From the NCBI GenBank assembly GCA_049967655.1, contig JBMFSH010000029.1:1-35629 (forward strand): a stretch of DNA of 35,629 nt. The letters run 5' to 3'. The stretch's first letter is position 1, and each line of letters opens with the position of its first letter. The position numbers were made by a program, and so were the translations under genes. Below are positions 368 through 23,868 of this stretch, piece by piece. Source of the DNA: Acidobacteriota bacterium (GTDB lineage Bacteria; Acidobacteriota; UBA4820; DSQY01). Below the pieces are notes generated by a model. That model searched no databases, had not been told where the DNA came from, and saw only the letters and a list, made by a program, of their open reading frames with translations.

Positions 368-1576
368 TCACGGCGGGACGGATCCCTTGTTGCCCCTCGC
401 CCTCCGCACCCGGAGGTAGGCCTCGCGGAAGGGCAGGCCCTCGTCGCGCACGAGGCGATAGGCCTCCTCCGCGGCGCGGATGTCGGGGTCCAGGGCGGCG
501 GCCATGCGCTCCCCGTCGAAGTGGAGCCGGGGGACCACGTGGCCCATCAGGCGCGCCGTTGCCCGCACCGAGTCCATCCCCCGAAAGAGCGGCTTCTTGA
601 GGAGCTGGAGGTCGCGGTGGTAGCCGGAGGGGAGCTTGGCCGTCACGGCGATGACCTCGGTCAGCGCCGAGGCGGCCTCGGCGGCATGTCCCCTGGCCAG
701 CTCCAACAGGTCGGGGTTGCGCTTCTGCGGTAGCATGGAGGAGCCGGTGGTGAACTCGCGAGGCAGGCGGACGAAGCCGAACTCCGCCGTGGCGAAGAGG
801 CAGAGGTCGGCGGCGAGGCGGCCCATGTCCTGGGCGAGGAGGGAGGCCTCGAAGAGGGCCGCAGCTTCGGCTTTGCCGCGGGAGAGCTGGACGGCGGTGA
901 CGGGCTCGTGGGTGGAGGCGAAGCCCAGGGCCTTCGTGGTGAAGGCGCGGTCGAGCGTGAGAAGGGGTACGCCGTAGCCCGCCGCCGAGCCTAGCGGGTT
1001 CTTGTCGGAGCGGCGCTTGGCGGCGCGCAGCCCCTCGGCGTCGTCGCGGATCTCGGCGGCGAGGCCGCCCGCCCAGAGCCCGAGGGTGGAGGGCATGGCC
1101 CGCTGCATGTGCGTGTAGCCCGGCATGGGCAGGTCGCCGCACCGGGGCGCGAGAGACTCCAGCGCCGCGGCCAGGGCCTCCGCGTCCAGGGCGAGCGCCT
1201 CCAGTTCGTCCTTGAGCCAGAGGCGCAGGGCCACGAGCACCTGGTCGTTGCGTGAGCGCCCCAGGTGGATGCGCCGCCCCGGTTCTCCCACGGCGGCCGC
1301 GAGGCGGTTTTCCAAGGCCGTGTGGACATCCTCGTCCTCCTCTGCCACGCGCCACTCCCCGCGAGCGTGCGACTCGCCAAGGGCCTTCAGCGCCCCTTCG
1401 AGGGCCGTCAGTTCCTCGCCGGAGAGGTGGCCGCAGGCGTGGAGCATGGCGGCGTGGGTGAGGGAGGCCCGCACGTCGTAGGGCACGAGGCGGTTGTCCA
1501 GGAGGGCGTCCTCGCCGGCGGTGTACTGAAGCACCAGCGCGTCCAGGGTCTCGCCCCGGTCCCAGAGGGGTTTCAC
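368..1576 (-). CDS. argH: Argininosuccinate lyase
   Basis: 402-aa ORF with EDVH, GRSRNDQV, PGYTHMQRA and the fumarase-superfamily signature GSSMLPQKRNPD; start overlaps the argE stop (GTGA). Confidence 0.95.
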   Translation of the reverse strand: MKPLWDRGETLDALVLQYTAGEDALLDNRLVPYDVRASLTHAAMLHACGHLSGEELTALEGALKALGESHARGEWRVAEEDEDVHTALENRLAAAVGEPGRRIHLGRSRNDQVLVALRLWLKDELEALALDAEALAAALESLAPRCGDLPMPGYTHMQRAMPSTLGLWAGGLAAEIRDDAEGLRAAKRRSDKNPLGSAAGYGVPLLTLDRAFTTKALGFASTHEPVTAVQLSRGKAEAAALFEASLLAQDMGRLAADLCLFATAEFGFVRLPREFTTGSSMLPQKRNPDLLELARGHAAEAASALTEVIAVTAKLPSGYHRDLQLLKKPLFRGMDSVRATARLMGHVVPRLHFDGERMAAALDPDIRAAEEAYRLVRDEGLPFREAYLRVRRARGNKGSVPP

Positions 1577-2670
1577 GCTCCACCTCCGGCGCAGAGGAAG
1601 GAGGGAACCTCGCGCACGAGGCGTTCGTAGAAGGAGGCCCCGTCGAGGATCTCCGACTCGAAGACGAACTCGTCGGGGGTGTGGGAGCGCTCGGTGCGGC
1701 CGGGCCCCGCCTTGATGCCGGGGATGCCGCGGAAGAAGACGAGATCCGAGAGCCCGCTGGAGCCGATCACCCTAGAAGCCGGGCGGGCGGCCAGGGCCGC
1801 GCGGACGAGCGGGTGCGCGGGGTCGGTCTCGTAAGGCCCCAGGCGGTCGCTCACGACGCGAAGGCCTCCCGCCACGGCGCCCCTTAGTCGCCCCACGAGG
1901 CGCTCCGCGTGGGGGCCGGGGACGGTGCGCACGTCCAGGATGCAGGAGGCTTTGCCCGGCACCACGTTCCGCGCCGTCCCGCCCTGAGCGACCGTGGGCT
2001 CCATCGTCACGGGGCCCAGCACGGGATGGGGTGGGCCGAGATCCACCCCCTCCAGCGCTGCCAGGTCGCGGGCGAGCTGCCGGATGGCGTTGCGGGCCTG
2101 GAGCGCGCGCCCGTGCGCGGCGTGGCAGGCCGTTCCCTCCTCCTCCAGCTCGAGGATGAGGAGGCCCTTCTGGGCCGCCGCCACGTCCAAGGCCGTGGGC
2201 TCTCCCACCACCACGGCCTCCGGTTTCAGCCCCAGCCGCTCGATCTCGGGCACCACCGCCTCCGTCCCCTTGCCACCCACCTCCTCCTGCGCCGAGAGGA
2301 GGAGGAGGATGCGCACGCGCCGCGGTGCGCCGCCCTTTACGAGGCGGGCGAAGGCGCCCACCATGGCCGCCACGCTGGCCTTGGCGTCGTTACTGCCGAG
2401 CCCCACCACGCGGCCGTCTCCCGTGACGCGCGCCTCGTGCGGCGGCAGCGTCCAGGCCGCCGAGGCGGGCACCGTGTCCAGGTGCGAGTTGAGGCAGAAG
2501 AGGGGCCCCTGGCCCACCCAGGCCGCCAGGTTGTTCCCGAAGCGGCGCACCGTCGCTCCAAGCGCCTCGAGCCTCGGCTGGAGGAGGTCGCAGAGGGGCC
2601 CCTCCTCCCCCGAAACCGAAGGGGTGGCGACCATCTGGCGGTGGAGGGCGAGGATCTCGGCGTCGGTCAA
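1573..2670 (-). CDS. argE: M20 family deacylase (ArgE-like; probably N-acylcitrulline/N-acylornithine deacylase)
   Basis: C-terminal 365 aa of ORF 1573..3549, from a TTG overlapping the argB stop. Motifs TPSVSGEE, NSHLDTVP, GLGSNDAKAS, QEEVGG, GEPT and SHTPDEF. Confidence 0.88.
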   Translation of the reverse strand: MTDAEILALHRQMVATPSVSGEEGPLCDLLQPRLEALGATVRRFGNNLAAWVGQGPLFCLNSHLDTVPASAAWTLPPHEARVTGDGRVVGLGSNDAKASVAAMVGAFARLVKGGAPRRVRILLLLSAQEEVGGKGTEAVVPEIERLGLKPEAVVVGEPTALDVAAAQKGLLILELEEEGTACHAAHGRALQARNAIRQLARDLAALEGVDLGPPHPVLGPVTMEPTVAQGGTARNVVPGKASCILDVRTVPGPHAERLVGRLRGAVAGGLRVVSDRLGPYETDPAHPLVRAALAARPASRVIGSSGLSDLVFFRGIPGIKAGPGRTERSHTPDEFVFESEILDGASFYERLVREVPSFLCAGGGA

Positions 2671-3629
2671 GGGGAGGCCTCCCTCGCCTCTTCGGGCGGC
2701 TGGGCCTGCTCGCCGGGCGCCAGCTCCGACGTGCTCTTCACGATCAGCGTGCCGGCCCCGGCGTTGGTGAAGACCTCCAGGAGGAGGCTGGCCTTCTGCC
2801 GCAGGCCCACCACGTGCACCCGCCGGACACCGCCCTGCAGTGCGGCTCTGGCGGCGGCCATCTTGGGACGCATGCCGCCCTCCACCGCGCCCCTCGCCTC
2901 CAGCGCCGCCACCCCGTCGAGGTCCGTGTAGCTCACGAGGGAGGCGGGGTCCTTGCGGTCCTCCAGCAAGCCCGGCGCCTTGGTGAGGAAGACGAGCTTG
3001 TCGGCTTCGAGGGCGCAGGCGATCTGGGCGGCCACCGTGTCGGCGTTGACGTTGAGCAGGCGCCCCGTTTCGTCGGCGGCGACGGGGCTCACCACGGGCA
3101 CGAAGCCCGCGGCCATGAGGCGGTCGAGGACGGAGCGGTCCACGGCGATGAGGTCGCCCACCTCGCCGTAGTCCACGGTGGCCGGGCCCTGCGGCGTCTG
3201 CACCGTGACCGGCCCGCGAACGCGCGCCTTGAGCAGCCCCGCGCCCACGCCCGAAATGCCCACGGCCGGGAGCCCCGCGGCGCACAAGGCCGAAACGATC
3301 GCCGTGTTGACGGAACCGTTGAGGGCCATGACCACGGGCTCGATCATCTGCGGGCTCGTGACCCGCCGCCCCTCCACGAAGCGGCTCTCGACGCCGAGCC
3401 GCTCGGCCAGGGCGGTGGCCTGCGGCCCGCCGCCGTGGACGATGACGAGGCGGATGCCGAACTCGTGGAAGATGCTCGCCTGCTGGGCGAAGCCGGCGAG
3501 GGTCTCGGCACCCTCCTCCCGTTCCATGCCGAGCTTGAGGACGAAGCAACGCCCGCGGTAGAGGCGGACGTAGGGGAGGGCCTGGAGCAGCGCGGCGAGC
3601 ATGGCCTCGCGGTCGGGGTGTCCGGTCAT
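2667..3629 (-). CDS. argB: N-acylglutamate kinase
   Basis: ATG 3629 overlaps the argF' stop. Motifs QALPYVRLYRG, VIVHGGGPQ, GRRVT, NVNADTVA and GGMRPKM. The N-terminal KxGG motif reads KLGM. Confidence 0.9.
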   Translation of the reverse strand: MTGHPDREAMLAALLQALPYVRLYRGRCFVLKLGMEREEGAETLAGFAQQASIFHEFGIRLVIVHGGGPQATALAERLGVESRFVEGRRVTSPQMIEPVVMALNGSVNTAIVSALCAAGLPAVGISGVGAGLLKARVRGPVTVQTPQGPATVDYGEVGDLIAVDRSVLDRLMAAGFVPVVSPVAADETGRLLNVNADTVAAQIACALEADKLVFLTKAPGLLEDRKDPASLVSYTDLDGVAALEARGAVEGGMRPKMAAARAALQGGVRRVHVVGLRQKASLLLEVFTNAGAGTLIVKSTSELAPGEQAQPPEEAREASP

Positions 3630-4636
3630 GGTCTTTCCTCCGAGAGCAGTTCCAGCAAGAGTGCCTTCTGGACGTGGAGCCGGTTCGCGGCCTCCCGAAC
3701 GACCACGCTGCGCGGGCCGTCCAGGACCTCGTCGGCCACCTTGACGTTGCGGCGCACGGGCAGGCAGTGCATGAAGAGGGCGCCCGGCGCGGCGGGTGCG
3801 AACCACGGCTCGGCCACGCACCAATCCCGCAGGGGCCCCCTCAGGGCGGCCTCTTCCTCGGGCTTGCCGTAAAGCGAGGGCGCCGTCCAGGACTTGGCGT
3901 AGAGCACGTGGGCGCCCTCCATGGCCTCACGGCGGTCGGAGGTCTCCCAGACTCGGCCGCCGGAGCGCCCCGCTAGATCCCGGGCGCGGGCCATGACCGC
4001 CTCGGGCAGGGCGAATCCCTCGGGGCGCAGGACCACCGCCTCCATCCCCCGCATCGCGGCCATCGTGAGGGCCGAGGCGGGGACGGCGTAGGGCAGCGGT
4101 TTGGGGTGGTAGGCCCAGGAGAGGACGAAGCGGCCGCCTCGCCGCGGCACGGAGAGGTCTTCGAGGGTCTTCCAATCGGCCAGCGCCTGGCAGGGGTGAG
4201 CCGAGGCCGATTCGAGGTTGATGAAGGGGACGGGGCTCAGGCTCGCCATCTTGCGCATGACGCCGTCGGCCAGGTCCTCCTCCAGGTTCCGCCCCGCGGC
4301 GAAACAGCGGACGGCGAGGAGGTCGGCGTATTGGGCCAGGACGGGGATCGCCTCCCGGACGTGCTCCGCCGCCGCACCGTCCATCACGACGCCGTCGCGC
4401 ATTTCGAGCTGCCAAGAGCTCTGGCCGGGGGTGATGATAACCGTGTCGCCGCCCAGCTGCTTCACCCCCGCGTCCATGGAGGCCAGGGTGCGCAGGGAGG
4501 GATTCATGAAGAGCAGGCCCACGATTTTGCCCGCCAACGCGGTGCTGAGGGGGGCGCGTTCGAGCCGCGCGGCGAGGCGCAGCAGCTCCTCCAGCCGCTC
4601 CATGGGCCACTGGGAAAGATCGAGGAAGGACGTCAT
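3626..4636 (-). CDS. argF': N-acylornithine carbamoyltransferase (ArgF', AOTCase/SOTCase family)
   Basis: SLRT carbamoyl-phosphate motif instead of STRT, extended loop WQLEMRDGVVMDGAAAEH, HPCQ, proline-rich loop WAYHPKPLP and HCLPVRRN. Confidence 0.92.
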   Translation of the reverse strand: MTSFLDLSQWPMERLEELLRLAARLERAPLSTALAGKIVGLLFMNPSLRTLASMDAGVKQLGGDTVIITPGQSSWQLEMRDGVVMDGAAAEHVREAIPVLAQYADLLAVRCFAAGRNLEEDLADGVMRKMASLSPVPFINLESASAHPCQALADWKTLEDLSVPRRGGRFVLSWAYHPKPLPYAVPASALTMAAMRGMEAVVLRPEGFALPEAVMARARDLAGRSGGRVWETSDRREAMEGAHVLYAKSWTAPSLYGKPEEEAALRGPLRDWCVAEPWFAPAAPGALFMHCLPVRRNVKVADEVLDGPRSVVVREAANRLHVQKALLLELLSEERP

Positions 4637-4959
4637 GCGGGGATCTCCTTGAGCGCGGCCACGAGCTCATCTATGTGGCGATCTTCCAGGATGAGCGGGG
4701 GCAGGAGGCGGACCACGTGGGCATCGGCGCTCCCGCCCGCAAGGATGTGCCGCTTGCGCAGGGCGTGCAGCAGGCGCGGGTGGCCGTAGCCCAGGAGGGC
4801 CACCGCGTGGCCGCCGTAGAAGTCCAGGTAGCGCCCGCCCTCCGCGGCGAAGAGGTAGGGTCCCTCGCCCCGCTCGGGTTCCAGTTCCACCTGGGCGTAG
4901 ACGTCCAGGAGAGGGTTCAGCGGGGCGCCGCGAAGGAGCGCTTCGGTGTTGGTCGTCAT
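4633..4959 (-). pseudogene. argD: Class III aminotransferase (ArgD) with a large in-frame internal deletion
   Basis: 108 aa. The N-terminus (RGEGPYL..YLDFYGGHAVALLGYGHP) joins directly to the C-terminus (VVRLLPPLIL). The PLP-binding core (DEVQ, catalytic Lys) is absent; junction at about 4757-4766. Confidence 0.85.
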
Positions 4960-5981
4960 TAGAAGTATCCCATGCCCGGCAGGCGAAGGCCGGTGTCCTC
5001 TTCGAGCCCGAAGAGGCGGTTCATCCACTGGACGCCGCCGCCCGCGGCGCCCTTGATGAGGTTGTCGAGGACCGAGGTGAGGAGCACTGTCCGGCCCCGC
5101 ACCGCCACGCCGATGCGGCACCGGTTCGTCCCCACCACGTCGGTGAGCCTCGGCGGCTCCAGCGCCACCTCGACGAAGGGGCTTCCGGCGTAGAGTGCGC
5201 CGACGGCAGAGGCCACGGCCTCGGCCGTGGCGGGCGCCCTGAGCGTGGTTCGCAGGGTGGCGTGGATGCCGCGCACGAAGGGCCCCGAGTGCGGCACGAA
5301 CTCGATCGAAGGGGTGCAGCCCGGCCGCGCCTTCTCGAGGAGCATCCGCATCTCCGGCTCGTGGCGGTGGGCCAGCGGCGCGTAGGCGTAGAGGTTCCCG
5401 TTGCGCTCGGGGTGGTGGGTCCTGGGCGAGGGGGTGCGGCCGCTCCCCGAGCTGCCCGTCACGGCGCAGACGAAGACCTCCTCTTCGATGAGGTCCGCGG
5501 CGAAGAGGGGGAAGAGCGGCAGGAGCACCGCCGTGGTGAAGCAGCCGGGGTGGGCTACGGCCGTACCTGGAAGCCCGGGCAGGTGCTCGGGGAGGGCGCA
5601 GGCGAAGGAGGGGCAGCGCGCGGGGGCGCCGTGGGCCTTCCCGTAGACGGCGGCGTAGGCGGCGGGGTCGGAGAACCGGAAGTCCGCCGAGAGGTCCACT
5701 ACGCGAAGCTTTGTCCCCGCCTTCTGGGCGCGGGCCATGCACTCGTCCACGAGGGAGGCCGATTGGCCGTGGGGCAGGGCGGCGAAGAGGCCCAGCGGCC
5801 CTCCGTCCAGCAGGCGCGCCTGCACCTGCGCCGCCGTCTCGAACCGCAGCCCCGCCACCGCCGTGCCCGCCAGGTGCGGAAAGGCCGAGAGGAGGCTCTC
5901 GCCCGCGTGGCTCGTGGAGGCCACGCCCACCACGAGGAAGCGCGGATGGAGGGCGAGGAGGCGCAGGAGCTCGCCGGCCAC
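4959..5981 (-). pseudogene. argC: N-acyl-gamma-glutamyl-phosphate reductase lacking its N-terminal GxxGY nucleotide-binding strand; fused in frame to an upstream gene fragment (joint ORF 4959..6176, 405 aa)
   Basis: Motifs AGELLRLL..HP, ALPHG, VDLSADFR, AHPGCFTT, VTGSSGSG, HRHEPE, RGIHAT and DNLIKGAAG. Upstream of VAGELL the Rossmann motif is replaced by unrelated sequence. Confidence 0.82.
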
Positions 5982-6176
5982 CACGTCGCCGGGCTTCACC
6001 TTGGAGAACCTCCCCGAAGGCAGTTCGAGCTGATTGTAGGTGCTCTTGGAGTTGAGCACGCGCACCGCCACCACGCCGCCCTCCACGGCGGGGATCTCCG
6101 TCCCCAGCCGCACCTCGCGGGAGAGGCGGCAGGTGAGGGTCACGGAGCCGATCTTGTCCAAAAGGACCTTCTTCAT
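5972..6176 (-). pseudogene. N-terminal ~68-aa fragment of an uncharacterised gene, tentatively DUF1611-like
   Basis: ATG coupled to the argG stop (ATGA). Sequence MKKVLLDKIGSVT...NSKSTYNQLELPSGRFSKVKPGDVVAG is not ArgC-like. The LELxSGR...GD pattern recalls DUF1611-type proteins (from memory, unverified). Confidence 0.5.
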
Positions 6177-7100
6177 GCGCCGCCCCCCTTCCCGGCCCGC
6201 GCGTAGAGGACGCTCTGGAGGGAGAAGAGCCGCGAGAAGCCGCGCGCATCCTGCGCCGTCCACTCCCCCGCGGACTCGCCGTATACGGCTTTGGAGGCGG
6301 CCTTCATGGAGAAGGGCGAGGAGACGCCCTCCACGAAGCACGAGCCGGGGCGCAGCAAGACGCGGACCTCGCCCGTCACGCGCTCCTGGGAGCGCAGGAG
6401 CAGGGCCTCCGCGTCCCGGCAGACGGGGTCGTAGTAGAGCCCCTCGTGGATGAAGTCGCCGTAGGCGGCCGACACCGTGTCCTTGAGGCGCTGCTGGCGC
6501 GCCGTGAGGACGAGCTTCTCCAGCTCCCGGTGCGCCTGGATGAGGACGGTGGCGGCGGGGGCCTCGAAGGCCACGCGGCCCTTGAGCCCCAGGATCGTGT
6601 CGCCCAGGTGGATGCCCCTCCCCACGCCGAAGGAGCCCGCGAGGCGGTTCAGCTTTTCGATGAGTTCCACCGGAGGGAGGGCTTCGCCGTCCAGGGCCGA
6701 GGGGATCCCCTGCTCGAAGGCCACGGCGTGGGACTCGGCGGGGCGGGGCGCGTCGAAGGCTCCGCGCGTGAGGACCCACGCCTCCTCGGGAAGGGGATCG
6801 GTGGTGGTGTTGGTCTCGCGCCCGCCGATGGTGCAGCCCCACAGGCCCGCGTTGATCGAGTAGGCGGCGCGGGACTCCGGCCACTGGAGCCCGTGCTTCG
6901 CGAGGTAGGCCACCTCCTGCGCCCGCGTGGTGCCGCCGTCCCGGATGGGGGCCAGGATCTCGGCCTCGGGCAGGAGAGCCCGCAGGGCCGCCTCGAAGCG
7001 CACCTGGTCGTTGCCCGCCGCCGTGGAACCGTGGGCCACGGCGCGCGCCCCCCACGCCGCCGCGGCCTGGGCCACGGCGCGGGCCTGCAGGGCGCGCCTC
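6173..7100 (-). pseudogene. argG: Argininosuccinate synthase, 5'-truncated
   Basis: Motifs RALQARAVA, AVAHGSTAAGNDQVRFE, YSINAGLWG and GDTILGLKGRVAFEAP. The N-terminal ATP-binding SGGLDTS region is missing; homology stops near 7100, where gltB sequence begins on the other strand. Confidence 0.88.
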
Positions 7101-7101
7101 G

Positions 7102-9793
7102 CGCTCCGTCCTCCACGGGCGGGAGCTCTTCTACGTGGCGAGCCTGTCGAGCCGGACCGTCGTCTACAAGGGCATGCTCAACGCCGACCAGCTCGGGACC
7201 TTCTACTCGGACCTCGGAGAGGAGGGTTTCGCCTCCATGTTCGACAACGCCCTCGAACTGCTCTACCTGGCCGGGCGCCCCTTGGCCCACGTGCTCATGA
7301 GGGCGCCGAGCCCATCGGTTCCATGGGCACGGACATTCCGCTGGCGGTGTTCTCGGAGCGCCCGCAGCTCCTCTACGATTACTTCAAACAGCTCTTCGCG
7401 CAGGTGACCAACCCGCCCGTGGACGCCGACCGCGAGAGCATCGTGCTGGCCGTGGATACGGCCATCGGGCCGGAGGGCAACCTCCTGGAGCCGGGCCCCG
7501 GCTCCGCCCTCCACTTCCAGCTCCCCACGCCGGTCCTGCCGAACGCCGAGCTGGAGAAGGTGCGCAACCTCGACGGGCGCCCCGCGTCAAGGGGCTTCCG
7601 CTCCATCACCCTTCCCATGCTCTTCTAGACCGGAGAGGGCGGCCAGGGCCTGCGCAAGGCGCTGGACGACCTCCGGCGCCAGTGCAGCGAGGCCATCGCC
7701 GAGGGCCACAACATCCTCATCCTGACGGACCGGGGCCACGACGCCACCGACGCGCCCATCCCGGCCCTGCTCGCCATGGGCGCGGTCCAGCACCACCTGC
7801 TCCGCGCCGGGACGCGCCAGCAGGTGGGCATCGTTCTCGAGACGGGCGAGCCGCACGAGCCGCACGAGGTCCACCACTTCTGCGCCCTCATCGGCTACGG
7901 GGCGAGCGCGGTGAACCCCTACCTGGCCTTCGAGACCATCCACGACCAGGTGGGCGAGCAGATGATTCACGGTGACCCACGGGAGGCGGAGCGGCGCTAC
8001 GTGAAGGCCGTCAACAAGGGCATCGTGAAGGTCATGTCCAAGATGGGCATCTCCGCCGTCGAGAGCTACCACGGGGCGCAGATCTTCGAGGCCATCCTGG
8101 CGCGCTTCAAGACGGGGGCCATGTCCTACGGCTCCAGCAGCCAGGAGGCCCACGAGGCGCTGGCCATCGCCATGAACCGCATGGCGGGCAAGAGCAACAC
8201 CGGCGAGGGTGGAGAGGATCCCGAGCGCTTCGAGCCCCTGCCCAACGGCGACTCCCGGAACAGCGCCATCAAGCAGGTGGCCTCCGGGCGCTTCGGGATC
8301 ACGAGCCAGTACCTGGTGGCGGCCCGCGGGATCCAGATCAAGATGGCCCAGGGCGCGAAGCCGGGGGAGGGCGGCCAGCTCCCGGGGCCCAAGGTCTACC
8401 CGTGGATCGCCCGCGTCCGCCATGCGACGCCGGGCGTGGGGCTCATCTCACCCCCGCCCCATCACGACATCTACTCCATCGAGGATCTGGCGGAGCTCAT
8501 CTACGACCTCAAGAACGCCAACCCCGAGGCAAGGGTGAGCGTGAAGCTGGTCTCGGAACACGGCGTCGGCACCATCGCCGCGGGCGTGGCCAAGGCCCAC
8601 GCCGACGTCGTCCTGATCAGCGGTCACGACGGCGGCACGGGCGCGGTGCCCCTCACCAGCATCCGTCACGCGGGCGCCCCGTGGGAGTTGGGCTTGGCGG
8701 AGGCCCAGCAGGTTCTTGTCCTGAACAACCTTCGCAGCCGCGTGGTCCTGGAGAGCGACGGCCAGCTCAAGACCGGCCGGGACGTGGTCATCGCCGCGCT
8801 CCTCGGGGCCGAGGAGTTCGGCTTCGCCACCGCGCCCCTGCTGGCGCTAGGCTGCGTCATGATGCGCGCTTGCCACAAGAACACCTGCCCCGTGGGCGTG
8901 GCCACGCAGGACCCGGAGCTGCGGAGGCGCTTCGCCGGGGACCCGCAGCACGTGGTGAACCTCATGCGCTTCACCGCCATGGAGGTGCGCGAGTGGATGG
9001 CCTTCCTCGGCTATCGGCAGTTCTACGAGATGGTGGGCCGCTCCGAACACCTCGAGATGCGCCGCGGGGCGGACCATTGGAAGGCCCGTTCCCTGGACTT
9101 CTCCCGGATGCTCTGGAAACCCACCGTCCCAAGGGACGTGAAGCGTACCTTCCGGGTGAGCCAGGAGCACGACCTCGACAAGAGCCTGGACCGGACCACG
9201 CTCATCCCGCTCAGCGCTCCGGCCCTCGAAGCCGGCACGAGCGTGGCCGCCGACCTCCTCATCGCCAACCGTAACCGGGCCGTGGGGACCATGCTCGGCA
9301 GCGAAATCACCCGCCGCCGCGGCGGGGCGGGCCTGCCGCCCGACACCATCCGCCTGCGCTTCCAGGGATCGGCGACCACGGGTGCGAATACATGACCGGC
9401 GGGGAGGTGGCGATCCTGGGCCGGGCGGGAAGGAACTTCGGTGCCGGGATGTCGGGTGGCGTCGCGTGGGTGCTGGATGAGGCGGGGGACTTCCCGGCGC
9501 GCTCCAATCTCGACCTCGTGGGCATGGGGCCCGTCGAAGGGGTGGCCGAGGCGGAGCACCTCCGAGAGATCGTGGCTCGGCACGCCGCGGCCACGCAGAG
9601 CGCCCGGGCCTTTGCGATTCTGCGAGACTGGGCGGCGTGGCTCCCCAAGTTCGTCCGGGTCATGCCCCACGACTACCGGCGGGTGCTGGAGACCCAGGCG
9701 CGCATGCGGGCCGCCGGGCCGCCGGAGGAGGAGGCGGTCCTGGCCGCCTTCGAGGAGAACGCGCGGAGCCTCTCCCGCGCCGACGGGAACTGA
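7102..9793 (+). pseudogene. gltB: Glutamate synthase large subunit, 5'-truncated, with several internal deletions, frameshifts and a premature stop
   Basis: Recognisable blocks: [113 protein letters not shown] and GCEYMTGG. About 2.7 kb versus roughly 4.5 kb for a normal gltB. In-frame TAG at 7626-7628. Confidence 0.93.
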
Positions 9794-13730: not shown

Positions 13731-14223
13731 GAAGGGCTCTCCCTGATCAGCGGCCGCCTCCGGGCCCGCGCACCGGACCGGCAGGCGGCCGTCCGCTGTC
13801 GTCCCGATTCTACTGCAAGCAGCCCCTGGAAGGAGAGCCCACCGGCGCCGTGCGCCCGAAAGAAATGAAAGGTTCCGGACCATGGCTGTCCAAAATAAGT
13901 TCAGCTCGCACTGGTGCGGTCTGCCTTCCGGAGCGAAGCGAAGGGCGTCTGGAGGCACGCGACGGAAAGGGCGGACTCGCGGCGAGGCGGAAGGTGCGGT
14001 GGCGGATGGCCGCCTAAAGGAGGCGCCCGCGCTTGATGGTCTGCGAGGCGAGGGAATGGGCCAGCCCGTGGCGCGTTTTGCCTAACAGGAGCGGAGGGGA
14101 GTGGGGTTAAGGAGTGATGAGGCAGACGGGCAGGGAGAGGGGCCCTGAGGCCTCTTCCCCGCGACCGTATGGCAGTTTAGAGTGGGGGAGGGGTGCCAGG
14201 GACGGTACAGGCGAGGAGGGCGC

Positions 14224-18626: not shown

Positions 18627-18968
18627 CCCGCGCCCCCTTTGCCGCGCCGCCTGGCTGTGCAAGCCTTGGTGGTTCTACAGAAGCCCCTGCGCCTTCATGA
18701 GTTCGGCGATGAGCAGGGTTCCGCCGGCGGCGTCGCGCATGAAGCGCTCCCCGAGGCGGGCCTCGGCCGGCCCTCCTCGGCGCTCCCCGGCTTTCGCCGG
18801 GGTCGCTGCTTCTCCCTGCCCTTGCGTGAGGAGCCCTCTGGGCGGGGGAACCTTCCCGTTCCCCCGCGCCCCCTTTGCCGCGCCGCCTGGCTGTGCAAGC
18901 CTTGGTGGTTCTACAGAAGCCCCTGCGCCTTCATGAGTTCGGCGATGAGCAGGGTTCCGCCGGCGGCG
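18627..18968. repeat. Perfect 106-bp direct repeat (18627-18732 and 18863-18968) containing the asd 3' end
   Basis: Identical copies at offset 236. Each includes the last ~19 asd codons, the stop and 48 bp downstream. The 130-bp spacer has GC-rich hairpins. Confidence 0.93.
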
Positions 18969-19960
18969 CCGCGGATGGTGTTGTGGACCAGGGCGGTGTA
19001 GCGGAGGCCGAGGATGGGGCAGGGCTGGAGGCGGCCGACGGTGACGGCCATGCCCCCCGAACGGTCGCGGTCGAGGAGGGGCTGGGGCCGGGCGAATCCC
19101 TCCTCCAGCGCCACCGGTCTCTCCGGCGCGGAGGGCAGGCCGAGGCCGGCCAGCGGCGAGGCGTAGGCCAGGAAGGCCTGGCGGGCCTCCTCCGGCGAAG
19201 CCGGGTTCGCCAGTTCGACGGAGACCGAGAGCAGGTGACCGTCTCGAACCGGAACGCGGTTGCACTGGGCGCTGACGGTGACGCCCGCGGGCCGAATCCA
19301 AGGCCGCTCCAGCTCCCCGAAGATCTTGGCGGGCTCTTCGCGGAGTTTGGCCTCCTCCCCGGCAATCTCCGGTAGCACGTTGTCCAGCGCCTCCAGGGAG
19401 GCGACACCCGGATGGCCGGCGCCGGAAAGGGCCTGCAAGGTCGTGACCAGAACGCGCCGCAGGCCGAAGGCGCGGCGAAGCGGTTCCAGGGAGAGGCAGA
19501 GGCCGATGGTGGAGCAGTTGGGGTTGGCCGCGACGGCGCCGCCGTATCGGGCGCGCTGCGGAGCGAGCAGGGCCAAGTGGTCGGCGTTCACCTCGGGAAT
19601 CACGAGGGGCACCTCGGGCTCCAGGCGCAGGGCGCTCGCGTTGCTGATCACCGTGAAGCCGGTGGCCCGGAAGGCGGGTTCCGCCTCAGAAGCCGTGGCC
19701 GCATCGAGGGCGGAGAAGGCGAAGTCGGCCTCGATCCCACCGGGGGCGAGTGGCCGCACCGGCATGGCCGCGGCGCGCTCGGGCACGCCCCCCGGCAGGA
19801 GCCAGCGCGCGGCCTCGCCGTAGGGCTTGCCGGCCGACCGATCGGAGGCGACGAGGGCGGCCAGCTCGAACCACGGATGATCTTCCAGGAGCTGGACGAA
19901 CCGTTGGCCCACCATGCCCGTGGCGCCCAGCAGCGCCACCTTCAGCTTCCGATCAGCCAC
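18911..19960 (-). CDS. asd: Aspartate-semialdehyde dehydrogenase (archaeal/fungal-like branch)
   Basis: LGATGMVGQRF, SNAS, PEVNADHL, catalytic NPNCST, QALSGAG, CNRVPV.DGH and HNTIRGAAG. Confidence 0.95.
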   Translation of the reverse strand: MADRKLKVALLGATGMVGQRFVQLLEDHPWFELAALVASDRSAGKPYGEAARWLLPGGVPERAAAMPVRPLAPGGIEADFAFSALDAATASEAEPAFRATGFTVISNASALRLEPEVPLVIPEVNADHLALLAPQRARYGGAVAANPNCSTIGLCLSLEPLRRAFGLRRVLVTTLQALSGAGHPGVASLEALDNVLPEIAGEEAKLREEPAKIFGELERPWIRPAGVTVSAQCNRVPVRDGHLLSVSVELANPASPEEARQAFLAYASPLAGLGLPSAPERPVALEEGFARPQPLLDRDRSGGMAVTVGRLQPCPILGLRYTALVHNTIRGAAGGTLLIAELMKAQGLL

Positions 19961-21350
19961 GAGCGGCCTCCTTCCCGGCGACGGCGGCCTCGGCGGCCTG
20001 CCCGAAGAACCGCCGGTGGAGCGAGCGCACCGCCGAGGCCAGGTCGGATTCGGCGATGACGAAGCCCAGGGCCACCTCGGAACCTCCCTCCGAGATGAGG
20101 GAGACGGGCACCTCTCCGAGGGCGTCGAAAACCCGGCCCGCGAGGCCGGGCTGGTCCCTGAGCCCTTCCCCCACCACGCAGACCACGGCCTGTCCCTCGC
20201 GGACGGTGACGGAGCCCAGCTTGGACAGTTCGCGCAGGGCCGATTGAAGGCTGGGGCAGCCCTGGAAGGCCATGGCCACGGAGACCTCGGAGGTGGCGAG
20301 GGCGTCGGGGACGACGCCGTGCCGGTCGAGGATCTCGAAGAGGCGGGCCAGGAAGCCGTGGGCCTTGAACATGCGGGCCGAGACGAGATGGACGAGGGTC
20401 ACTCCCTCCTTGTAGGCGATGCTGCGCACCGGGCGACCGTCCCGCGGGGCTTCCGCCAGGACGAGCGTGCCGCGGCCCTCGGCGCGCCGCGTGTTGAGCA
20501 CCCGCACGGGGATGCCGCGCTCCACCGCCGGGGCCAGCGTCTTGGGATGGAGGACGCGGGCGCCGAAGAAGGCCAGCTCCGCCGCCTCGCGGAAGCTCAT
20601 GACGGGTATGTTTCTGGCCTCCGGGACGAGCGATGGGTCGGCCGTCATGATCCCGTCCACGTCGGTCCAGATCTCGATCTCCTCGGCTCCGAGGGCGGCG
20701 CCGATGAGGGAGGCAGTGAAGTCCGAGCCTCCCCGGCCCAGGGTGGTGGGCGCACCCGAGAGGTCCCGGGCGATGAAGCCCTGCGTCACGGGCACGAGGC
20801 GGCGGGCCAGCAGGGGAGCGAAGGCCTCGCGGCAGCGGTGGCCCGTCTCCTCGATCAGGGGTTCGGCGCCGCCGTGGATGGATTCGGTCACCACCAGCTC
20901 GCGGACGTCCACCCAGACGGTGGGAAGCCCGCGCGCGGCCAGGGCCGCCGACACCAGCCGGCTGGAGAGCAGCTCGCCGAAGTGGAGCAGGCGGTCCTGC
21001 ACGGCCGGCGAGAACTCCTCCACGGCCGCGAGCCCGCCCGCCAGCCGCTCGATGGAGGCGAAGTCTCGGTCGAAGTGCGTCAGAAGAGCCCGCCTCTCCT
21101 GGGCCGCCTCCAGCAGTTCCCCGGCCAGCCGCGCGTGGAGGAGCCGCAGGTCTCGCAGGAGCTGGAGGCCGAAATCGAGGCGTCCCGAAGCCGCGGCTCG
21201 TCCCATGGCCTCCAGTGCGTCGGTAGTGTGCCCCACGGCGGAGACCACGAGCAGGAGCGGCTCGGAGGCCCTGCTCCGGGTGATGGCGGCCAGGCGCAGG
21301 ATGGCCTCCGTGTCGCCCACCGAAGTGCCGCCGAACTTCAAAACGCGCAT
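19953..21350 (-). CDS. lysC: Aspartate kinase with two ACT domains
   Basis: VLKFGGTSVG, GELLSS, TTLGRGGSDFTA, WTDVDG and GARVLHP. Confidence 0.94.
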   Translation of the reverse strand: MRVLKFGGTSVGDTEAILRLAAITRSRASEPLLLVVSAVGHTTDALEAMGRAAASGRLDFGLQLLRDLRLLHARLAGELLEAAQERRALLTHFDRDFASIERLAGGLAAVEEFSPAVQDRLLHFGELLSSRLVSAALAARGLPTVWVDVRELVVTESIHGGAEPLIEETGHRCREAFAPLLARRLVPVTQGFIARDLSGAPTTLGRGGSDFTASLIGAALGAEEIEIWTDVDGIMTADPSLVPEARNIPVMSFREAAELAFFGARVLHPKTLAPAVERGIPVRVLNTRRAEGRGTLVLAEAPRDGRPVRSIAYKEGVTLVHLVSARMFKAHGFLARLFEILDRHGVVPDALATSEVSVAMAFQGCPSLQSALRELSKLGSVTVREGQAVVCVVGEGLRDQPGLAGRVFDALGEVPVSLISEGGSEVALGFVIAESDLASAVRSLHRRFFGQAAEAAVAGKEAARG

Positions 21351-22471
21351 GGCGGGCGCCCTTTCCCGAGGAAGGCGGCGAGCAGGAGGTCGAGCGCGGC
21401 GGTCTCCACGAGGAAGGCGTCGTGGCCGAACCGGGAGCTCAGCTCGGCGTAGGAGGCCCGCGCGCCGAGGGCCGCGAGGCGCTCGGCGGTGGCGCGGAGC
21501 GGACCCGGCGCGAAGAGCACGTCCGAGTCGATGCCCACGACCAGCACCGGAGCGCGGATCGTCGCCATGGCCTCCTCCGGCGAGGCAAAACCGGCGGAGG
21601 CGTCGTGGAGGTCCATCATGCGGGTGAAGGCCACGTAGCTGCGGGCGTCGAAGCGCCGCACGAGTTTCTCGCCCTGGTAGGCGAGGTAGCGCTCCACCTG
21701 AAAGGGGTTGGAGGCGGAAAGGCGCGCCGCCGCCTCCGGCTCCAGCCGCTCGCGTCCGAAGCGCTCCTCGAAGAGGCCTTCGCTCCGGTAGGAGACCATG
21801 GCGATGGCGCGGGCCAGGGCCAGGCCGCGCTCGGGGCCGTTCCCCTCATAGCGCCCCTGGCGCCAGGCAGGATCCAACTCAATGGCGCGCCGGGCCGCGG
21901 CGTTCAGGGCGATGGACCAGGCCGTGGCCCGGAAGGGGCCGGCGATGGGGACGGCGGCGGCCACGAAGTCGGGGAACTGGACGGCCCATTGCCAAGCCAG
22001 CATGGCGCCCAGGGAGCCGCCCAGCACGAGGGCCAGGCGGCGCACGCCGAGGTGGTCGAGGAGGGCCTTGAAGGCCCGCACTGCGTCCCGCGTGGTCACC
22101 ACGGGGAAGGAGGCCCCGTAAGGCCTGCCGGTCTTCGGATCGGCGCTGCCCGGCCCCGTGGAGCCGTAACAGCCGCCGGGGATGTTGGCGCAGACCAGGA
22201 AATACCGGGAGGGGTCCAGCGTCCGGCCAGGCCCGACGAGTCCCTCCCACCAGCCCGGCTCGTCCTGTGGGCCGTGGGAGGCGGCGTGAGGGCCGCCGGT
22301 CAGGGCGTGGCACAAAAAGACGGCGTTGTCGCCGGCCTCGTTCAAGGCTCCCCAGGTCTCGTAGGAGAGGGTCAGATCGCGCAGGACGCCGCCACCTTCG
22401 AGCGGAAAGGGCCCGGGAAGGAGGCAAAGCTTCTGAGAGCGGGGATCGGGGGCCTGGGCTGGCTGGCTCAT
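21338..22471 (-). CDS. metX: Homoserine O-acyltransferase (MetX family, probably acetyltransferase)
   Basis: YETWG, CHALTG, GGCYGSTGP, catalytic GGSLG, DSDVLF and GHDAFL. Confidence 0.93.
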   Translation of the reverse strand: MSQPAQAPDPRSQKLCLLPGPFPLEGGGVLRDLTLSYETWGALNEAGDNAVFLCHALTGGPHAASHGPQDEPGWWEGLVGPGRTLDPSRYFLVCANIPGGCYGSTGPGSADPKTGRPYGASFPVVTTRDAVRAFKALLDHLGVRRLALVLGGSLGAMLAWQWAVQFPDFVAAAVPIAGPFRATAWSIALNAAARRAIELDPAWRQGRYEGNGPERGLALARAIAMVSYRSEGLFEERFGRERLEPEAAARLSASNPFQVERYLAYQGEKLVRRFDARSYVAFTRMMDLHDASAGFASPEEAMATIRAPVLVVGIDSDVLFAPGPLRATAERLAALGARASYAELSSRFGHDAFLVETAALDLLLAAFLGKGRPPCAF

Positions 22472-23748
22472 GCCTTCTCCAGGGCCTGGCCGAGATCGGC
22501 CAGGAGGTCGTCGACGTGTTCCAGGCCGACCGAGAGACGCACCAGGTCGGGGGTGATGCCGCCCTTGAGCTGGTCCTCCTCGCTGAGCTGGGAGTGGGTC
22601 GTGGTGGCCGGGTGGATGGCCAGGCTCTTGGCGTCCCCCACGTTGGCGAGGTGGGAGAAGAGGCGCAGCCCGTCGATGAAGCGCCCTCCCGCCTCGGCGC
22701 CGCCGCGCACCCCGAAGACCACCATGCCGCCGAAGCCTCCGCTCAGCACGCGGAGCGCCGTCGCGTGAGCGGGATCCTCCTCCAGTCCCGGGTAGCGCAC
22801 CCAGGTCACTTTGGGGTGGGCCTGGAGGAAGCGGGCCACCGAGAGGGCGTTCCGGCAGTGGCGCTCCATCCTCAAGGGCAGCGTCTCGATCCCCTGGAGG
22901 GCGTACCAGGCGTTGTCCGGGTTCAGGCAGGCGCCGAGGTTGCGCAGGGGGACGGTGCGGGCGCGCACGATGAACGCGATTGCGGAGAGCGGCCCCAAGT
23001 CGTGCGCGAAGCGCAGGCCGTGGTAGCTCGGCTCGGGCTCGTTATAGAGGGCGAACTTGGGGTTCCTCCAGTCGAAGCGTCCCGAGTCCACGATGATCCC
23101 GCCGATGAAGGTGCCGTGGCCTCCGATCCACTTGGTCAAGGAGTGGACCACGATGTCGGCGCCCTGCTCGATGGGCCGGCAGAGGAAGGGCGTGGCGAAG
23201 GTGTTGTCCACGATGAGCGGGAGGCCGTGGGCCTTGGCGACGGCCGCAACGGCGGGGATGTCCACCACGTCGAGAGCCGGATTCCCGATGGTCTCCACGA
23301 AGAGCGCCCGGGTCTTGGGCGTGATGGCGCTCGCGAAATGGGACGGATCGAGGGGGTCCACGAAGCGGGTGTGGATGCCGAACTGGGGGAGGATGTCGTG
23401 GAACTGGGTGTGGGTGCCGCCGTAGAGGTTGGAGGCGGAGACGATCTCGTCCCCCGATCGGGCGAGGTTGACGACGGCCGTGAAGATGGCGGCCGTGCCG
23501 GAGCTCACGGCCAGCGCGGCGGCCCCTCCTTCGAGGGCGGCCACGCGCTTCTCGAGAACGTCGTGGGTGGGATTCTGGAGGCGCGTGTAGATGTTGCCGA
23601 GCTCCTTGAGGGCGAAGAGGTTGGCCGCGTGCTCCGTGCTCTTGAAGACGTAGCTGCTCGTGCGGTGGATGGGGAGCGCGCGGGCGCCTGTCTCGTCGAT
23701 GGGCTGTCCCGCATGAAGGCAGAGGGTCTCGAAACGGAAATCGGCCAT
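22468..23748 (-). CDS. metY: O-acetylhomoserine aminocarboxypropyltransferase (sulfhydrylase)
   Basis: ATG 23748 with GGAGGA RBS. FETLCLHAG, GNIYTRLQNPT, DNTFATP, PLP site HSLTKWIGGHG and ANVGDAKSLAIHPATTTH. Confidence 0.95.
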   Translation of the reverse strand: MADFRFETLCLHAGQPIDETGARALPIHRTSSYVFKSTEHAANLFALKELGNIYTRLQNPTHDVLEKRVAALEGGAAALAVSSGTAAIFTAVVNLARSGDEIVSASNLYGGTHTQFHDILPQFGIHTRFVDPLDPSHFASAITPKTRALFVETIGNPALDVVDIPAVAAVAKAHGLPLIVDNTFATPFLCRPIEQGADIVVHSLTKWIGGHGTFIGGIIVDSGRFDWRNPKFALYNEPEPSYHGLRFAHDLGPLSAIAFIVRARTVPLRNLGACLNPDNAWYALQGIETLPLRMERHCRNALSVARFLQAHPKVTWVRYPGLEEDPAHATALRVLSGGFGGMVVFGVRGGAEAGGRFIDGLRLFSHLANVGDAKSLAIHPATTTHSQLSEEDQLKGGITPDLVRLSVGLEHVDDLLADLGQALEKA

Positions 23749-23775
23749 GCTTTCCTCCCGGCAAGAGCCAGAAAC

Positions 23776-23807
23776 AAAAAACCCGCCTCGGCCGAAGCCG
23801 GACGGGT
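23776..23807 (-). terminator. Intrinsic terminator-like hairpin in the met operon leader (attenuator)
   Basis: Minus strand ACCCGTCCGGC-TTCG-GCCGAGGCGGGT followed by a T run, between the SAM-II aptamer and the metY RBS. Confidence 0.8.
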
Positions 23808-23816
23808 CGCGTCCAT

Positions 23817-23868
23817 GCTTTAGCCGCATTTCTTAAGCGCCCGCAAGCTATGGTTCAAATCGGCGCCC
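23817..23868 (-). ncRNA. SAM-II riboswitch aptamer
   Basis: Minus strand GGGCGCCGATTTGAACCATAGCTTGCGGGCGCTTAAGAAATGCGGCTAAAGC matches the SAM-II pattern GCGC.GATTT...TTGC..GCGC...AAATG..GCTAAA. P1 GGGCGCC/GGCGCTT plus pseudoknot pairing. Lies in the leader of metY-metX. Confidence 0.85.

Follow-up and report, generated by a model that had tools for sequence, protein, structure and literature searches.

DgcN, a DUF1611 protein, is described as an acetyltransferase that transfers the acetyl group of acetyl-CoA to D-glutamate, and the N-terminal domain of DUF1611-type proteins is of the alpha/beta type. For the N-acylation of glutamate, the known enzymes (review PMC4490483) comprise ArgA, NAGS/K, ArgJ, short GNAT forms, the succinyl route of Bacteroides and LysW/ArgX. 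PMC9932657 places Lys37 of BioD in the active site together with Lys15, Thr16 and Glu108. Closest to the present case, Price et al. (GapMind 2026; PLoS Genet, PMC13759103) predicted that Steroidobacter ACG33_RS14135 (A0A127FCT3) is an alternative ArgA, making N-succinylglutamate; the accessible text of that paper cites a resemblance to the same DgcN structure (7XRJ), marks the prediction as unconfirmed and reports that Steroidobacter lacks both ArgA and ArgE. In that text the exclusion is tested against Pseudomonas ArgA, and ArgJ, ATP use and the N-domain are not discussed. The published prediction implies an acyl-CoA transferase. No experimental test of it was apparent in the literature covered, which leaves out most subscription journals.

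The window analysed here, i.e. the whole stretch of 35,629 nucleotides, carries an arginine operon in the order argG'-X'/argC'-argD'-argF'-argB-argE-argH, next to a gltB remnant (Table 1). The X'/argC' part is a single open reading frame (6176..4959, minus strand, 405 aa), in which 68 foreign residues are joined at V-A-G to an ArgC devoid of its glycine-rich NADPH loop. The start codon of this frame (6176-6174) and the stop codon of argG (6175-6173) overlap in the sequence ATGA. Residues 1-68 matched no Pfam family and gave weak chance matches only in NCBIfam. The ArgC model TIGR01850 matched (267 bits) from residue 67 of the fusion and from model position 13.

Table 1. Features of the arg-glt block in the window
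Feature	Coordinates	Strand	Basis and remarks
argH, length as in relatives	368..1576	-	Profile match and relatives
argE-like M20 deacylase	1573..2667	-	Profile matches
argB, kinase domain only, no GNAT domain	2667..3629	-	Profile matches
argF' (N-acylornithine carbamoyltransferase), full length	3626..4636	-	NF003384 over cut-off
argD remnant, 108 aa	4633..4959	-	In-frame internal deletion of ~0.84 kb at ~4760-4765 vs G003
argC remnant; first ~20 codons lost, and with them the nucleotide-binding loop G-G-x-G-Y	4959..5981	-	TIGR01850 and comparison with P0287
Deletion junction, V-A-G common to X and ArgC	5972..5981	-	~0.92 kb lost vs congener G003
Gene X remnant, first 68 codons	5973..6176	-	P0286 identical over 68 aa; P-loop domain deleted
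argG remnant, 5' ~100 codons (5' third) and upstream argR lost	6173..7097	-	Comparison with G003; stop overlaps X start
gltB remnant	7132..9727	+	Residues ~214-250, 510-769, 890-1319 and 1406-1516 left of a 1533-aa reference frame

The original prediction had described a foreign 68-aa N-terminus, coupled to argG through ATGA and joined to ArgC at V-A-G, and comparison with two intact proteins confirmed this. P0286 (358 aa) is identical to the fusion at all 68 residues and goes on with V-A-G-V-L-G-H-R-K. P0287, an intact ArgC of 360 aa that starts ...G-G-T-G-Y-V-A-G-E-L, is 93% identical to the ArgC part of the window, and the fusion enters it at residue 21, past G-G-T-G-Y. Since P0286 and P0287 each carry V-A-G, this motif was present in both parents; at the DNA level, the junction GTGGCCGGCG would correspond to 10 nt of parental identity, the parents being known here as proteins. 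The fusion is best explained as a pseudogene, the relic of a deletion of ~0.9 kb between two stretches coding for V-A-G. Because the glycine-rich loop of ArgC and the whole P-loop domain of X are gone, it is very probably inactive; the ArgC remnant taken by itself is probably inactive as well. The contig of the window is the sole recorded source of this exact fusion, and the genome of the window (G000, 99.3% complete) contains no second copy of the 68-aa piece. The X copy of a close strain (P0003) is also identical over the 68 aa and has unrelated sequence after residue 158, which reflects either a separate break or a misassembly. Two candidates for natural fusions, P0054 (X-ArgC-like) and P0083 (ArgG-X-like), were read as frameshifted translations and left uncounted.

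The search of longer proteins for homologues of the 68 residues, which had been proposed as a check, gave 296 matches at E ≤ 0.001 among 419 candidates, so that the piece is not a chance sequence; among the 120 matches listed, most are 350-380 aa long, with 74-100% identity to the 68 aa. The intact form, X, is a conserved protein of ~358 aa composed of an all-beta N-domain and a SIMIBI P-loop domain. Names given to its matches in the ESM Atlas are automatic only ('hypothetical', 'putative DUF1611'). The X protein P0004 is 61% identical over 355 aa to an orthologue from a Steroidobacteraceae MAG with the same operon layout, and identities to proteins of Steroidobacteraceae MAGs are 59-62%; taking this orthologue as a proxy, we infer with high confidence from the sequence identity that X and A0A127FCT3 belong to the same family.

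The neighbourhoods of full-length homologues were compared in the best 80 of 596 confirmed loci from GTDB, whose titles include Acidobacteriota, Gammaproteobacteria, Myxococcales/Deltaproteobacteria, Planctomycetota and Eisenbacteria, and the proposed linkage to arginine genes was borne out. In these best 80 of 596, the next arginine gene after X is argC in 78, the other two loci stopping at a contig edge, and argG is present in 67, argB in 64, argF' in 55, argH in 52 and argE in 37. The X-argC order was also found in 6 of 6 relatives that have X (one being the unpublished G052), as well as in each of 8 orthologues sampled at greater distance (32-49% identity). Together with P0286, the loci carrying a full X support the earlier idea that an intact gene once stood here in the ancestral operon. 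Ten of the best 80 of 596 loci contain X-argC-argB only, and 4 of the 8 distant orthologues have the arrangement X-argC-argD-argB. Split operons thus keep X with the early steps, as would be expected of an enzyme for step 1 but not of one for the ArgE step. The minimal X-argC-argB clusters (L058 and L060, two copies in one genome; L057, L066, L070, L071, L076, L084, L086 and L091) often lie downstream of genes that we take to be tamA/tamB-like. The deacylase is unaccounted for in X operons that have argF' and argH and no argE (L045, L050, L064, L077, L079, L081, L083, L085, L087-L090, L092 and L021).

The operon had been noted to lack argA and argJ, and this proved to be true of the whole of genome G000, where neither ArgJ nor classical ArgA was found. 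The possibility raised at the same time, that argA had been in the deleted 5' part of the operon, does not hold: in the intact congener G003 this region is occupied by argG and an argR-like gene, and neither ArgA nor ArgJ was found anywhere in its genome. The searches were conducted in 56 genomes with X, 50 of them from the best 80 of 596 loci (completeness not given for these 50) and 6 further ones. ArgJ was found in 0 of 56 (10 of 14 controls were positive). For classical ArgA (TIGR01890), 0 of 56 genomes had a match above the cut-off; no match extended beyond model position 290, which leaves all of them in the kinase domain, and the same result (0/56) was obtained with the short ArgA model NF005840, in a search whose scope leaves out divergent short GNAT synthases such as the Bacteroides-type ArgA. 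Sub-cut-off GNAT matches occurred in 10 of the 56 genomes, the other 46 having no such match at E ≤ 1e-8. PF04768 matched in no control genome and was therefore uninformative as a test.

Across 401 genomes of the phylum, X (E < 1e-100) was present in 109 and ArgJ in 132, with an overlap of 0 against ~36 expected if the two were independent, a contrast that is inflated by the kinship of the genomes. The 109 include G052 and leave out the broken copy of G000, two split or partial copies and weak matches. The check for co-occurrence thus came out at 0/56 and 0/109 for ArgJ and at 0/56 for classical ArgA. An internal control was provided by a distant subfamily of X (E 1e-58 to 1e-67), which lies outside arginine operons in 12 of 12 loci examined: ArgJ is present in 6 of 12 genomes that hold only this subfamily. 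Its members (L170-L180, L189) carry a G-N-R-Y or G-x-R motif with the same P-loop and second Lys, and their neighbours (ABC exporters, M20/M28 peptidases, ATP-grasp proteins and flavin reductases) indicate no decisive chemistry; the subfamily possibly performs peptide or amide-bond chemistry.

In the ArgF' of the window, Ala takes the place of Glu92 of the Xanthomonas wild type, as in the E92A mutant structure, and the enzyme is predicted from this residue to be succinyl-specific. Among 85 loci scanned, the motif was found in 51, and every one of these has A, V, S or P at position 92; one extra chance motif was seen in L082. Because of these residues, in the window and in the 51 loci, the acyl group is probably succinyl and not acetyl. 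Either N-acetylation or N-succinylation of glutamate had been envisaged for the missing first step; X is the best candidate for this step, and acetylation has become the less likely of the two.

The argC synteny, the exclusion of ArgJ and ArgA and the succinyl-type ArgF' make it most likely that intact X is an N-succinylglutamate synthase and opens a succinyl-protected route to arginine. Intact X would make N-succinyl-L-glutamate for ArgB, ArgC and ArgD, which would respectively phosphorylate, reduce and aminate; ArgF' would carbamoylate N-succinylornithine, ArgE would remove the succinyl group, and ArgG and ArgH would finish the pathway. The active site would be the SIMIBI P-loop domain (G169-K170, K192, G195, E251, D284), and the beta N-domain would probably supply substrate contacts through its conserved residues R73, E51 and S11. 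As one share of this assignment, and by analogy with DgcN, the succinyl donor is quite possibly succinyl-CoA. Counterpoints to X as a synthase are that argE is also missing in 15 of the 52 argH-carrying loci (best 80 of 596), that sub-cut-off GNAT matches exist in some genomes and that the distant subfamily, with its shared motifs, is found away from arginine operons and in half of the 12 genomes alongside ArgJ, and a counterpoint to a DgcN-like X is that the fold match is no better than with CTP synthase or BioD.

This last point emerged from structural comparison. In an AlphaFold2 model of P0004 (pLDDT 94), residues 1-150 form a beta-rich N-domain and residues 155-350 a P-loop domain of the alpha/beta type. 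This P-loop domain resembles known structures of DUF1611 proteins (2G0T, Z 16.8; 2OBN, Z 16.7; DgcN 7XRJ, Z 15.9, rmsd 3.0 over 185 aligned residues), with a range of Z 15.9-16.9, rmsd 2.8-3.0, 181-187 aligned residues and 13-17% identity, and ties with CTP synthase (Z 16.1-17.0) and BioD (16.1); CTP synthases topped the fold list in a second look. Alignment with 24 DUF1611 proteins by hhalign gave a probability of 85% (E 6e-6), for X residues 153-352 only. PF07755 matched 17 of 68 X members at E ≤ 0.01 (best 1.3e-5), fewer than MobB (35/68) and CbiA (26/68), and its cut-off (25 bits) was reached by 1 of 15 X proteins, at 25.5 bits and over the P-loop strand and helix only. PDB sequence searches with X returned no DUF1611 or DgcN entry, the best match of the wide profile being BioD (E 9e-5). 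GNAT, ArgJ and ATP-grasp domains were not detected in X.

Modelled alone (pLDDT 89), the N-domain has one short helix and ten strands. Compared with 48,161 PDB chains (VIA-align), it reached a best Z of 3.2, to Tudor domains and the C-domain of LexA, not a meaningful similarity, and Foldseek found nothing at E ≤ 0.001. The VIA-align list contains no DUF1611 entry, an absence that is not the same as exclusion, and an unmatched N-domain does not amount to a new fold. The model points to an N-domain different from that of DUF1611. Of the DUF1611 likeness originally proposed, the part that stands concerns the C-terminal P-loop domain, by fold and over residues 153-352, in a tie with CTP synthase and BioD; the 68 residues actually seen belong to the unmatched all-beta domain. 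The resemblance is restricted to exactly the part deleted in the window.

Invariant in 68 diverse X members (29-77% identity) are G33, P84, G100, G169, K170, K192, G195, G209, G220, E251, D284 and G308. K170 and K192 align with K15 and K37 of BioD, and no conserved Lys was found at the K192-equivalent position in the 24 DUF1611 proteins, a set that does not include DgcN itself. E251-x-G253 is conserved in X and aligns with E-G-Q-G of DUF1611; the X-BioD sequence alignment ends short of E251.

We considered the possibility that X acts as an ATP-dependent succinate:L-glutamate ligase, which, like BioD and CTP synthase, would proceed via an acyl-phosphate followed by attack of the amine. This analogy can be put forward tentatively. 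It is suggested by the invariance of G169/K170 of the P-loop (68/68), by the invariant K192, counterpart of the active-site Lys37 of BioD and without a conserved equivalent in the DUF1611 set, by the rank of BioD in PDB sequence searches and of CTP synthases in the fold list, and by an N-domain for which no match to those of DUF1611 was found. Yet, DUF1611 proteins keep G-T-D-x-x-x-G-K-R-T and E-G-Q though DgcN is said to be an acetyltransferase, so that an intact P-loop is no proof of ATP use, and the Z-scores are tied between DUF1611, BioD and CTP synthase. If X were such a ligase, it would represent a CoA-independent, chemically different entry to arginine synthesis, with a beta N-domain unmatched in solved structures, and would serve roughly one in four of the phylum genomes sampled (109/401) as well as other phyla.

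The damage seen at X extends to the rest of the block. gltB has at least 4 deletions and is joined head-to-head with the argG remnant, two junctions having 9-11 nt overlaps; the arg-glt block as a whole (409-9727) contains at least 7 deletions, and junctions across it carry 5-11 nt overlaps. No second argG is present in G000. In run X3, contigs 19 and 20, from a relative at ~94% identity (~92-95% for the contigs compared), contain additional sequence at the junctions of X and argG and at two in gltB, the latter in contig 20; contig 19 departs from the window at 5967 and continues for 211 nt.

Alternatively, misassembly could have produced both the X-argC fusion and the remaining deletions, in which case the operon of the organism would be intact. 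No public run proved to be the source of the reads (the best run shares 0.14 of words), near-identical intact proteins exist, and chimeric amplification can yield short junction overlaps, such as those of 5-11 nt observed here. This explanation is nevertheless unlikely, the deletions being grouped in the arg-glt block. A crude screen compared 280 ORF calls from G003 (420 kb: 400 kb elsewhere plus the arg locus) with G000: 196 matched over their full length, 37 matched in part (2 of these in the arg block) and 45 lacked a homologue. The remaining 2 had internal gaps; a clean internal deletion was seen in argD alone, and the other gap, located elsewhere, is a replaced stretch. Furthermore, the window is colinear with three congeners from 11.4 to 21 kb, and the block is missing from two of these three. 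The screen and the congeners without the block indicate that the deletions cluster in a dispensable block, and true decay of this block is clearly more likely than misassembly. With the whole arg-glt block in decay, arginine auxotrophy is predicted for this genome. The relic is in itself of little importance, being a trace of how a single lineage has recently lost its genes for arginine synthesis and glutamate synthase.

The arg operon (409-7097) is 73-75% identical to its G003 counterpart, as compared with 87-92% for the rest of the contig (11400-21000), a difference in identity which suggests that the block may have been acquired horizontally and separately in the G000 or the G003 lineage. 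No gltB was found in 18 family members searched. Positions 18911-23829 hold an apparently intact cluster (asd, aspartokinase, a MetX-like alpha/beta-hydrolase and a Cys/Met PLP enzyme), so that decay of amino-acid genes is not general on the contig. A second argC/argB/argD-like cluster, possibly of the LysW lysine route, is present in G000 (C8, ~64500-68100) and in G003 (L008, 13385-16003). The window begins with the end of a CRISPR-like array (1-310; 4 full copies and 1 cut copy of a ~37-nt repeat, 72-74 nt spacing) that is cut by the contig start, and intergenic repeats at ~13880-13945 and ~18720-18890 have many copies in G000 and its congeners.

Turning back to intact X, it could be an acyl recycler analogous to ArgJ, which would return succinyl from N-succinylcitrulline to glutamate, or a deacylase alone. 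The argH loci without argE (15 of 52, best 80 of 596), the strict exclusion with ArgJ and the lack of both ArgA and ArgE in Steroidobacter, as given in the available text of PMC13759103, would agree with this, but 37 of the 52 argH loci (best 80 of 596) keep argE beside X, and X stays with argC and argB when argF', argG and argH are elsewhere. A transacylase or hydrolase would presumably not need a conserved P-loop either, and we regard such a role as improbable. It is very doubtful that X is a non-catalytic or accessory NTPase, i.e. a regulator or scaffold for ArgB/ArgC, with an unrecognised GNAT performing step 1 elsewhere: the SIMIBI fold comprises many chaperone-type NTPases (HypB, UreG, MobB) and 10 of 56 genomes have weak GNAT matches, yet 46 of 56 have none at E ≤ 1e-8, and perfect exclusion of ArgJ is not expected of an accessory factor. 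Finally, the 405-aa fusion, though in frame and coupled to argG by its ATG, is most improbable as a functional, selected bifunctional protein, with an ArgC lacking the nucleotide-binding loop, an X lacking ~80% of its length, argG, argD and gltB also broken, and a single record, from the window contig.

The idea of X as an alternative ArgA is already in print, as a prediction. The present analysis adds an independent test of exclusion against ArgJ, an argument from split operons for placing X at step 1, an N-domain without structural match and a specific reason to consider succinate plus ATP. If intact X is indeed an N-succinylglutamate synthase, a P-loop protein would do a job normally done by GNAT or ArgJ enzymes, and the family would supply a step so far missing from the pathway of many uncultured bacteria.

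Compared with the known glutamate N-acylating enzymes, X is proposed for the same step, with none of their GNAT, ArgJ or ATP-grasp domains detected in it. BioD and the amidoligase domain of CTP synthase, which are SIMIBI ATP-dependent C-N ligases, are similar to X in fold (Z 15.5-17.0) and in both aligned Lys residues, whereas X has an extra beta N-domain of 150 aa and different substrates, and its use of ATP would be hypothetical, by analogy with these enzymes. DgcN and other DUF1611 proteins (PF07755; 7XRJ, 2OBN, 2G0T) share the fold of the P-loop domain. In contrast to them, X has the invariant K192, an R-x-D-x(3)-M-x-D-x-G-A stretch that replaces T-G-Q-T of DUF1611, a nearly all-beta, unmatched N-domain and a position next to arginine genes; it is predicted to act on L-glutamate with succinyl, DgcN reportedly acting on D-glutamate with acetyl. 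Like the predicted ArgA of Steroidobacter, X lies in arginine operons, excludes ArgA, accompanies a succinyl-type ArgF' and shows a remote likeness to 7XRJ, and the copy in the window differs from it in being a relic of 68 codons fused to argC.
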